IMG/VR virus record: IMGVR_UViG_2846802666_000001
Coordinates: 1,549-65,548 of that record
DNA: 64,000 bases
DNA from: a virus
Taxonomy: Duplodnaviria > Caudoviricetes
Direction: 5' to 3' (one strand)
Shown here: piece by piece, positions 8,573 to 9,469 of the stretch
Layout of the letters: every line of letters begins with the position of its first letter
Numbering within the stretch: position 1 is the first letter of the stretch
Translations under genes and position numbers: made by a program
Notes under the pieces: generated by a model
Seen by the model: the letters and a program-made list of their open reading frames with translations, nothing else
What the model was told of the DNA's origin: nothing
Database searches by the model: none

Positions 8573-9469
8573 TCAAATAATCATGATTGTTGCAGTACCG
8601 GTCATCGGCGGGGAACCGCCCGTGAGCGCGGCGTTCCGACATGCAATACCAAACTGCAAACGATCGTTTTTAGCTACCCTGAATACGCGGGTGTAGATGG
8701 TGCGCATTGTCCGATCCAATCCGGGGTTGCCGTTGGAAAGGGTACTGTCGACCAACGCTCCATTATTGAAGACCCCAAGGCCGACCGCAGAGGCAAGGGC
8801 GGCCTCCTGGTACGCCGAAATCGACATGTGAGCGACTCCGTCATATGGTACGGTGAATATCCCGCCAGACAGCGAGCCTGAGTTGTCATAGTCCTCAACC
8901 AACGCCGAAGCGAGAAGTGTCAGATTGTCGATCGAGTTGGGAATTGCACCTGTCGCTAGATTGTAAGCCCCGCTAGCAAGTGCGCGAGTGGCGACGCTTT
9001 GAGGACTGGTCACAAGCATGCGCCAGTTGGTGCCGTCATATCCGAACTCGATGATAGAGTTCATCTTAAGATCGCCGGCCACGACATCGTCGCCAGAGGC
9101 CGTCTTTATCGGCCTTACTCCAAGGCCATTGAGGTTTATCGTCGCTGGACCGGTATTGACGTTCGAGATCTTGACCATGACGATCAGTCCGAGAAACAGG
9201 CTGGGTGGAGCTGGATTAAGAGTTGCGACAATCGCGTTGCCAGTCCCGGCAGTGGCAGCAAAGTTCACCTTGCCGGCCTGCACAGCCTGGGATAACTGCA
9301 GCCCATCAGCAGGTACGAGACCGGACTTAACCAAGAGGTCCACAAGCTCGCGCTGCGGCTTTTCGATGGCCTTAGCGGGAACCGCGGAGCCGCGAACAGC
9401 ACCAGGTATATCCTTGTCGACGTAAGATGCATCAGGATCAGTCGATCCGTAGGGCGGGTAATATTTCAT
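8573..9469 (-). CDS. Tail fibre/receptor-binding protein, paralog of prophage gene 54165-55061
   Basis: 298 aa, ungapped alignment to the prophage fibre, about 55 differences by manual count. Confidence 0.9.
   Translation of the reverse strand: MKYYPPYGSTDPDASYVDKDIPGAVRGSAVPAKAIEKPQRELVDLLVKSGLVPADGLQLSQAVQAGKVNFAATAGTGNAIVATLNPAPPSLFLGLIVMVKISNVNTGPATINLNGLGVRPIKTASGDDVVAGDLKMNSIIEFGYDGTNWRMLVTSPQSVATRALASGAYNLATGAIPNSIDNLTLLASALVEDYDNSGSLSGGIFTVPYDGVAHMSISAYQEAALASAVGLGVFNNGALVDSTLSNGNPGLDRTMRTIYTRVFRVAKNDRLQFGIACRNAALTGGSPPMTGTATIMII

Follow-up and report, generated by a model that had tools for sequence, protein, structure and literature searches.

Tail-fibre genes are of a kind that phage satellites are generally said to lack. 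Phage-inducible chromosomal islands (PICIs), among them the Staphylococcus aureus pathogenicity islands (SaPIs) and the Gram-negative PICIs, are ~12 kb long, carry attachment (att) sites, an integrase, regulators, and a small terminase gene next to a helper-type packaging signal, and depend on the capsids and tails of a helper phage. We analysed a window of 64,000 nucleotides (nt), the whole stretch from position 1,549 to position 65,548 of the IMG/VR virus record IMGVR_UViG_2846802666_000001, in which an island resembles PICIs in these respects but differs from them by a tail-fibre gene, by its alphaproteobacterial host, and in that no primase or replicase was recognised among its open reading frames (ORFs). 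The fibre gene is a variant of the fibre gene of a prophage that lies next to the island and is its candidate helper.

The passages on SatelliteFinder in one report list tail and holin genes as forbidden components, and candidates with such genes are rejected (PMC10085698). The island carries a tail-fibre gene and so falls under this ban; no search aimed at holins was made. Because tail genes count in current satellite censuses as a sign of a phage, islands of this kind would be missed or mislabelled as prophage remnants. Capsid-forming PICIs (cf-PICIs), as the sections on them in two reports describe them, have genes for capsid, portal, and adaptors and for both subunits of terminase, whereas tail genes are absent; which hosts they can enter depends on the phage tail that they capture (10.1101/2025.02.11.637232, PMC10085698). 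The islands treated here are like cf-PICIs in having a partial virion set of their own, in that sister islands related to the one in the window encode protease, major capsid, and decoration proteins. The window island differs, since no capsid, portal, adaptor or connector, or large terminase gene of its own was found among the ORFs scanned, yet it carries the host-range part itself. MiniFlayer, a Streptomyces satellite, has a tail-fibre gene in its genome, and short fibres attach to the neck of the helper; it is without a lysogeny module, and in the part of its report concerned with the fibre nothing presents this protein as a variant of the helper fibre (PMC10690885). No integrative satellite that carries a fibre gene of helper type came up in a full-text literature search; such cases may be listed in supplements, which lay outside the search. 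The gene order of the prophage in the window resembles P2 J-I-H-G and Mu 47-48-S-U. The satellite P4 carries a helper-type cos site, and we know of no fibre gene in it. Unlike in the P2/P4 and Mu cassettes, no invertible segment was seen, and the island ORFs had no PHROG or Pfam match to Psu, Delta, Sid, or the alpha primase.

The island gene and the prophage gene encode fibres of 298 and 298 amino acids (aa), which align by BLASTP without a gap and are identical at 243 of 298 positions (82%). The 55 substitutions are concentrated toward the C terminus, with a single change in residues 1 to 41, 5 in residues 1 to 60, 18 in residues 1 to 150, and 37 in residues 151 to 298; the last 80 residues hold 26. 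A preliminary description of the window had reported equal length, an ungapped alignment, about 55 substitutions (roughly 81% identity), a near-invariant N-terminal region, and about half of the changes in the last 80 residues, and the alignment bears it out on each point. Its account of the gene was accurate, except that it left the strand unstated: the ORF lies on the minus strand, and the plus-strand reading of the same positions contains three stops. At the DNA level, 212 of 897 positions differ (76.4% identity), and a repeat finder recovers the pair as an inverted repeat (8565 to 9469 and 54165 to 55069). A match of this extent between the two sequences is not due to chance. The 6.1-Mb genome holds exactly two copies of the fibre, one in the island and one in the prophage. 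Homologous proteins carry source names that place the genome in Agrobacterium. We surveyed 48 genomes of the genus, one per species and including that of the window (genomes and loci are given below by G and L numbers), and no further full-length copy was found in the 47 others. Pfam gave no match for either fibre.

The satellite fibre is the last gene of a leftward string that runs from a 145-nt element through the small terminase gene (terS) to the fibre, with a convergent ORF on the downstream side. Its ATG (9469 to 9467) overlaps the terS stop codon (9468 to 9466) in an ATGA, and an AAGGA stands 8 to 9 nt upstream of the start; the preliminary description had called the gene translationally coupled to terS. 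A promoter and terminator scan of positions 8000 to 14200 gave nothing better than shuffled sequences.

We consider it reasonably likely, from these comparisons and those below, that helper baseplates accept the satellite fibre and that particles thereby acquire a receptor-binding head specified by the satellite. On induction of the helper, the satellite would express terS and the fibre together; the fibre would trimerise, mature with a 190-aa partner protein of the helper, and dock on helper baseplates through its near-identical N-terminal region. Tails assembled in such a cell would then bear a head specified by the satellite, in addition to or in place of helper fibres, and particles with satellite DNA would adsorb according to the satellite's own head allele. 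If a satellite does bring along the fibre that binds the receptor, the helper ceases to dictate which hosts the satellite can reach, and satellite gene flow would have to be modelled differently.

Their substitution pattern shows the two fibre genes to be alleles of long standing, maintained by purifying selection. The nonsynonymous divergence (dN) is 0.115 and the synonymous divergence (dS) is ~1.26 by the Nei-Gojobori method, a ratio of ~0.09; this is the dN/dS analysis along the alignment that had been suggested as a check, and it indicates purifying selection. Synonymous differences are saturated in the C-terminal half, and dN in the head is 0.17 to 0.23. With this ratio and with saturated silent sites, the satellite fibre is not a recent copy of the prophage gene. 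Nucleotide identity drops steadily from 5' to 3', from 92% to ~63%, and identity at codon position 3 is 71%, 52%, and 32% in successive thirds of the gene. The 5' parts would have a more recent common ancestry, as expected of fibres that fit the same baseplate. Substitutions in the head showed no significant i+2 periodicity, such as changes on exposed strand faces would give, either overall (10 pairs versus 6.5 expected; P = 0.06) or within the dense stretch (P = 0.40), nor was there a clear bias between strand residues (15 substitutions in 63) and non-strand residues (11 in 36).

The satellite protein has the character of a myovirus baseplate fibre in that it is 82% identical to the product of a prophage gene placed directly after those for baseplate J and the wedge. 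Rhizobium phage RR1-A has the same order (baseplate J, wedge, fibre, small partner), and its fibre is 62% identical over residues 1 to 151; the J/wedge/fibre order is also found in the G015, G007, G033, and G025 prophages. Most database relatives match only the first ~150 residues and have other C termini, and one protein (P0004) has the same body and head with an unrelated first ~65 residues. The head (residues 150 to 298) has only three matches among 1.84 billion representative proteins. Over residues 156 to 298, the satellite fibre and the protein P0001 are 98% identical, and a second head group, formed by P0002, the helper fibre, and P0004 (84 to 92% mutual identity), is 75 to 82% identical to the first. 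In one phyllosphere metagenome run, contigs of ~94% identity read across the junction of terS and the fibre gene, and contigs of the same metagenome link the 3' end of the fibre gene to other island sequence. Two metagenome runs were compared with the island, and the island parts that they leave uncovered carry no meaning. At their low depth, these contigs fit a satellite-borne P0001. A search of genome contigs with the satellite terS or with the fibre alignment yielded no related loci, and a search of viral contigs yielded only distant relatives of the N-terminal or middle domain (nine loci; 25 to 42%).

The satellite fibre was modelled by AlphaFold as a monomer from 32 aligned sequences, with a mean pLDDT (predicted local distance difference test score) of 65.7, that is, of moderate quality. 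Residues 69 to 161 of the model resemble the tail fibre chain of Pseudomonas phage Pa193 as solved within the baseplate complex (PDB 9b45, 9b45_2; Foldseek E value, 9.4e-6), and the same superposition has a VIA Z of 8.8 and a root mean square deviation of 2.5 over 92 residues, with 33% identity. The fold in common with the Pa193 fibre is that of residues 69 to 161, and the window fibre is much shorter. The head (residues ~195 to 298) is modelled as a beta sandwich, for which the top matches are jelly rolls of the C1q/TNF type (Foldseek E value, ~1e-4; TM, ~0.5 by target).

The prophage gene that directly follows the helper fibre encodes the 190-aa partner, a candidate assembly chaperone. No homologue of it was found in the island, in agreement with the earlier statement that the satellite fibre comes without a chaperone of its own. 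The C-terminal ~120 aa of the protein are widely conserved, and the N-terminal ~60 aa are common to phages of the same type only; the protein P0057 is 72% identical to it over 94% of its length. The post-fibre proteins of RR1-A and of the G026 island have their first ~56 residues, as well as the head type, in common, and the remainder differs. The N-terminal module thus varies with the head type, as one would expect if the protein assists the assembly of one particular kind of fibre. The window satellite has no partner gene, and its fibre probably depends on a helper whose fibre has a head of the same type. Two-part post-fibre proteins were seen at 55065 to 55637 in the window, at 8557 to 9111 of L033, and at 10213 to 10761 of the RR1-A locus L001, the C-terminal part being either widely conserved or swapped.

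The identification of the 12.5-kb island as an integrative phage satellite is well supported by its gene content and boundaries (Table 1), as the preliminary description had held. Like a PICI, it has an integrase and flanking att repeats, here 12,549 bp apart, within the range of ~10 to 15 kb, and it has its own small terminase and a packaging-type element. PHROG and Pfam searches of 21 island ORFs gave no match to capsid, portal, large terminase, or tail-body families, and no lysis gene was recognised; many island ORFs remain unnamed. The satellite terS is 48% identical to that of the prophage by BLASTP and 54% identical in the genome search, with an alignment that begins at ORF residue 85 of the prophage terS. 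By tblastx, the island has no more than three pieces in common with the remainder of the window, namely the fibre, terS, and the 145-nt element. Against its own genome, the island DNA matches only the prophage fibre and the element upstream of terS. The 246-aa protein near attR is a lead only: its HTH_36 neighbours were found solely by language-model features (scores, 0.95 to 0.96), and it had no BLASTP similarity to the replication-initiator-like protein of the G026 island and no sequence match in the PDB. The MazF-like toxin of the window island (7924 to 8325) is 98% identical to that at 177 to 578 of L029 (G031) though the neighbouring genes differ, and no antitoxin was identified.

TABLE 1 Positions of features of the satellite island and of the tandem prophage in the window
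Feature	Position	Strand	Description
tRNA-Phe (GAA), integration target	1541..1616	+	ARAGORN
attL, 50-bp direct repeat	1569..1618		Last 48 nt of tRNA-Phe plus 2 nt; perfect match (50/50) with 14118-14167
Satellite tyrosine integrase, 360 aa	1690..2772	-	phrog_1, 4.2e-32; PF00589 over cut-off; 87-99% identical in sister islands
Arc-like DNA-binding regulator, 207 aa	3877..4500	+	PF03869, 2.3e-14; PHROG Arc-like families
MazF/PemK-like toxin, 133 aa, cargo	7924..8325	+	PF02452, 7e-15; 98% identical in G031 island
Satellite tail-fibre gene	8573..9469	-	298 aa; 82% identical, ungapped, to prophage fibre; tail PHROGs 4900 and 38233
Satellite small terminase, 213-aa ORF	9466..10107	-	phrog_57, 1.7e-10; homologous start probably Met16
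Satellite copy of conserved terS-upstream element	12450..12593	-	79% identical to 35630-35773; candidate cos/pac site or late control region
246-aa protein, lead only	13117..13857	-	phrog_15967; position of HTH_36/replication-initiator-like genes in sister islands
Satellite attR, left junction of tandem prophage	14118..14167		50-bp repeat
Second tyrosine integrase, 362 aa, assigned to prophage	14266..15354	-	phrog_1, 6e-35; 23% identical to satellite integrase
Prophage copy of terS-upstream element	35630..35773	+	With GGTTAACG repeats; ends exactly at probable terS start 35774
Prophage small terminase	35774..36379	+	phrog_57, 4.3e-17; ORF opens at 35522, probable start 35774
Prophage large terminase	36376..38361	+	phrog_15, 6.7e-166; only one of its type in genome
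Baseplate J-like protein	52370..53455	+	PF04865, 6.9e-37
Mu gp48-like baseplate wedge, presumed fibre docking neighbour	53445..54149	+	phrog_203, 4.2e-40; PF10076 below cut-off
Prophage (candidate helper) tail fibre	54165..55061	+	298 aa; position as RR1-A tail protein
190-aa fibre-partner protein, candidate assembly chaperone	55065..55637	+	phrog_32459; absent from satellite
O-antigen acetylase-like acyltransferase, 634 aa, candidate lysogenic-conversion gene	55685..57589	+	phrog_6705, 5.8e-152

Fibre genes recur in related islands. Across the genus, nine fibre genes match from residue 1, of which four belong to islands that have no baseplate genes and five are prophage genes next to gp48/J (G000, G015, G007, G033, and G025). 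Five further matches cover residues ~59 to 162 only (G030, three in G014, and G022) and were left out of this count; two of these partial matches (L037 and L038) have no gp48/J neighbours. Six related islands of 10.4 to 12.5 kb have the integrase (87 to 99% identical) or the regulators in common and vary in their virion genes, and the fibre gene is present in four of the six, at the end of the late operon. The sister islands, of similar size and layout, come from five other species and two tRNA sites. The G031 island, at tRNA-Phe and split over two contigs, has an integrase 94% and a MazF 98% identical to those of the window and encodes a protease, a decoration protein, a major capsid protein, and a 367-aa fibre. 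The G026 island lies at tRNA-Val (10.85 kb, with 30-bp att repeats) and carries genes for a replication-initiator-like protein, a terS-like protein, a protease-capsid fusion, a 402-aa fibre, and a 184-aa partner, and the G012 island (tRNA-Val; ~10.7 kb) carries a protease-capsid fusion and a 368-aa fibre. Two islands are without a fibre: that of G016 (L031) has a capsid gene and a 623-aa tape measure, and that of G022 (L032) has a capsid gene and two tail-associated genes (TAC_11 and gp10-like). An island at tRNA-Glu in another genus (L015 of G366) was seen to carry a primase, a 555-aa tape measure, Neck1, terS, and a capsid-like gene. A tape measure encoded by a satellite would be no less unusual than a fibre.

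Every satellite fibre has a counterpart among the phage fibres that it resembles from end to end. The window satellite pairs with its prophage (88% N-terminal and 75% C-terminal identity), the G031 and G012 islands pair with the G007 prophage (82 to 83% and 70 to 92%), and the G026 island pairs with RR1-A (81% and 84%). The helper-type prophages have tail and baseplate proteins that are 84 to 96% identical while their fibres differ. When we searched at the family level with fibre residues 1 to 160, 11 of 400 scored genomes matched; five of these 11 have the fibre 18 to 21 kb from terS in loci classed as prophages, and the others include G249, G111, G405, G207, and G117.

The element upstream of terS (145 nt; alignment A1) consists of a conserved core followed by tandem 8-nt GGTTNNCR repeats. 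With the satellite element as the query, it was located immediately before terS at 12 of the 14 related loci from other genomes. In six loci with GGTTAACG the terS N termini are 70 to 90% identical to the helper's, and in four loci with GGTTGTCA they are 44 to 53% identical, so by these alignments the repeat type tracks the terS N terminus, which is presumably the DNA-binding part. The repeats of the satellite element are two GGTTGTCA, one GGTTGACG, and two GGTTAACG, and thus include the helper's type. The element might be a packaging site that both the satellite and the helper terS recognise.

To the right of the island, chromosomal sequence of the kind that flanks tRNA-Phe islands in two other species starts again at window-equivalent position 66333, and a third copy of the att core (17 nt) lies at window-equivalent position 64888, past the end of the window. 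Together with the second integrase beside attR, these boundaries show a myovirus-type prophage of ~50.7 kb in tandem at the same tRNA-Phe. The two integrases (1690 to 2772 and 14266 to 15354) are the only PF00589 matches in the window. A portal and a major capsid protein were also recognised in the prophage; the sheath, tube, and tape-measure ORFs are named solely by 47 to 96% identical matches in related prophage loci, not by the family scan. The genome as a whole has two fibres, two terS genes, and one large terminase of matching type. The tandem prophage, which alone offers a terS, a large terminase, and a packaging-type element that match, is the only plausible helper in it.

The locus is a compact natural test system, with a satellite and a candidate helper side by side and two alleles of one head type (75% identical in the head). 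Further assets are that the partner gene is present in the helper only and that the acetylase gene adjoins the helper fibre.

A different role for the satellite fibre would be interference: as a competitive or dominant-negative product, it would fill baseplate sites or form mixed trimers and lower the infectivity of the helper, a further means by which satellites restrain their helpers. A docking region with 5 changes in 60 residues would serve this purpose too, and co-assembly is plausible at 82% identity. Tail-assembly blocking is known, moreover, for Tai and Tab, which the part of a report concerned with them describes as PICI- and prophage-encoded (PMC11364771). We nevertheless judge interference improbable, because the head is the best-conserved part of the protein relative to its closest relative, P0001, and the strong constraint on it (dN of 0.17 to 0.23 with saturated dS) would be unneeded for a mere plug. 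The fibres of the other islands are full-length, normal phage versions, one of them with its own partner gene, and poisoned tails would cripple the satellite's own particles. We also doubt that the gene is a passenger, acquired by recombination with a helper-like phage and without a role in transfer, or at most a donor cassette, a reservoir of spare parts for incoming phages. The pairing of each satellite fibre with a phage fibre type, with no satellite-only clade, and the 5'-to-3' identity gradient, which suggests within-gene recombination, would be natural outcomes of such acquisition. The intact ORF with its ratio of ~0.09 and saturated silent sites speaks against a passenger, however, as do the unvarying place as last gene of the late operon in four of six islands, the overlap with terS, and the recurrence of the terS-fibre adjacency in the metagenome contigs; elements of 10 to 12 kb would, as a general expectation, rarely retain 0.9 kb of useless DNA.

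That the island is instead the remnant of a decayed helper-like prophage that kept terS and the fibre is very improbable, although it has three segments in common with the prophage and lies adjacent to it. We rejected this origin on gene order: of 14 related loci, 13 have the large terminase and portal genes after terS, and here terS overlaps the fibre. In seven prophages the fibre is 18 to 21 kb from terS. The perfect att repeats and the intact integrase, the similar sister islands in five other species and at two tRNA sites, and a terS only 48 to 54% identical to that of the prophage also argue against a remnant.

Docking on helper baseplates with a satellite-specified head remains the reading that we prefer, and several points weigh against it. 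The island has no partner gene. Its head is of the same rare type as the helper's, and specificity may therefore be unchanged. Because myovirus tails are put together separately from the heads, the satellite fibre would end up on helper particles as well and would bring the satellite no private benefit. At 82% identity, mixed trimers are possible and are perhaps defective. The resemblance of the head to C1q/TNF domains has a VIA Z of ~7, is tied with that to the GOLD domain, and falls in the range of a "common arrangement," in a monomer model with a pLDDT of 65.7. The tandem prophage is only a candidate for mobilising the island, no primase or replicase was found in the island ORFs with Pfam and PHROGs, and the element upstream of terS could alternatively be a late promoter or control region. 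The comparison set comprises one genome per species, and the context of P0001 comes from low-depth contigs.

The acetylase gene beside the helper fibre suggests a polysaccharide receptor that is altered in lysogens. An O-acetylation bypass and tail poisoning, both raised in the preliminary description, are speculation. We would give only a small chance to the wider conjecture that the satellite head binds the acetylase-modified receptor and so allows entry into helper lysogens, and that the islands are "spare-part" satellites, each replacing single virion parts (fibre, tape measure, or capsid) of one conserved helper chassis. The modified-receptor idea is attractive in that only the satellite gains by entering helper lysogens, which are a dead end for the phage and would be the best possible target for the satellite. 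No acetylase-like gene was seen beside the G015, G007, or G025 fibres; in the G033 prophage (L039, 7673 to 9514), an acetylase-like gene that is 33% identical stands beside the fibre in the opposite orientation.

The prophage also carries genes of other kinds. Its left arm (15355 to 24170) holds genes for a DUF1643 protein, a DnaN-like sliding clamp (18320 to 19693), and a reverse transcriptase (20079 to 21452), and three copies of a 206-nt repeat lie at 21244 to 23003; these genes may be a retron-like or defence module. A tRNA-Met (25799 to 25874) also lies inside the inserted region, and positions 29400 to 32572 encode a PAPS-reductase-like protein followed by a 639-aa DNA methyltransferase.

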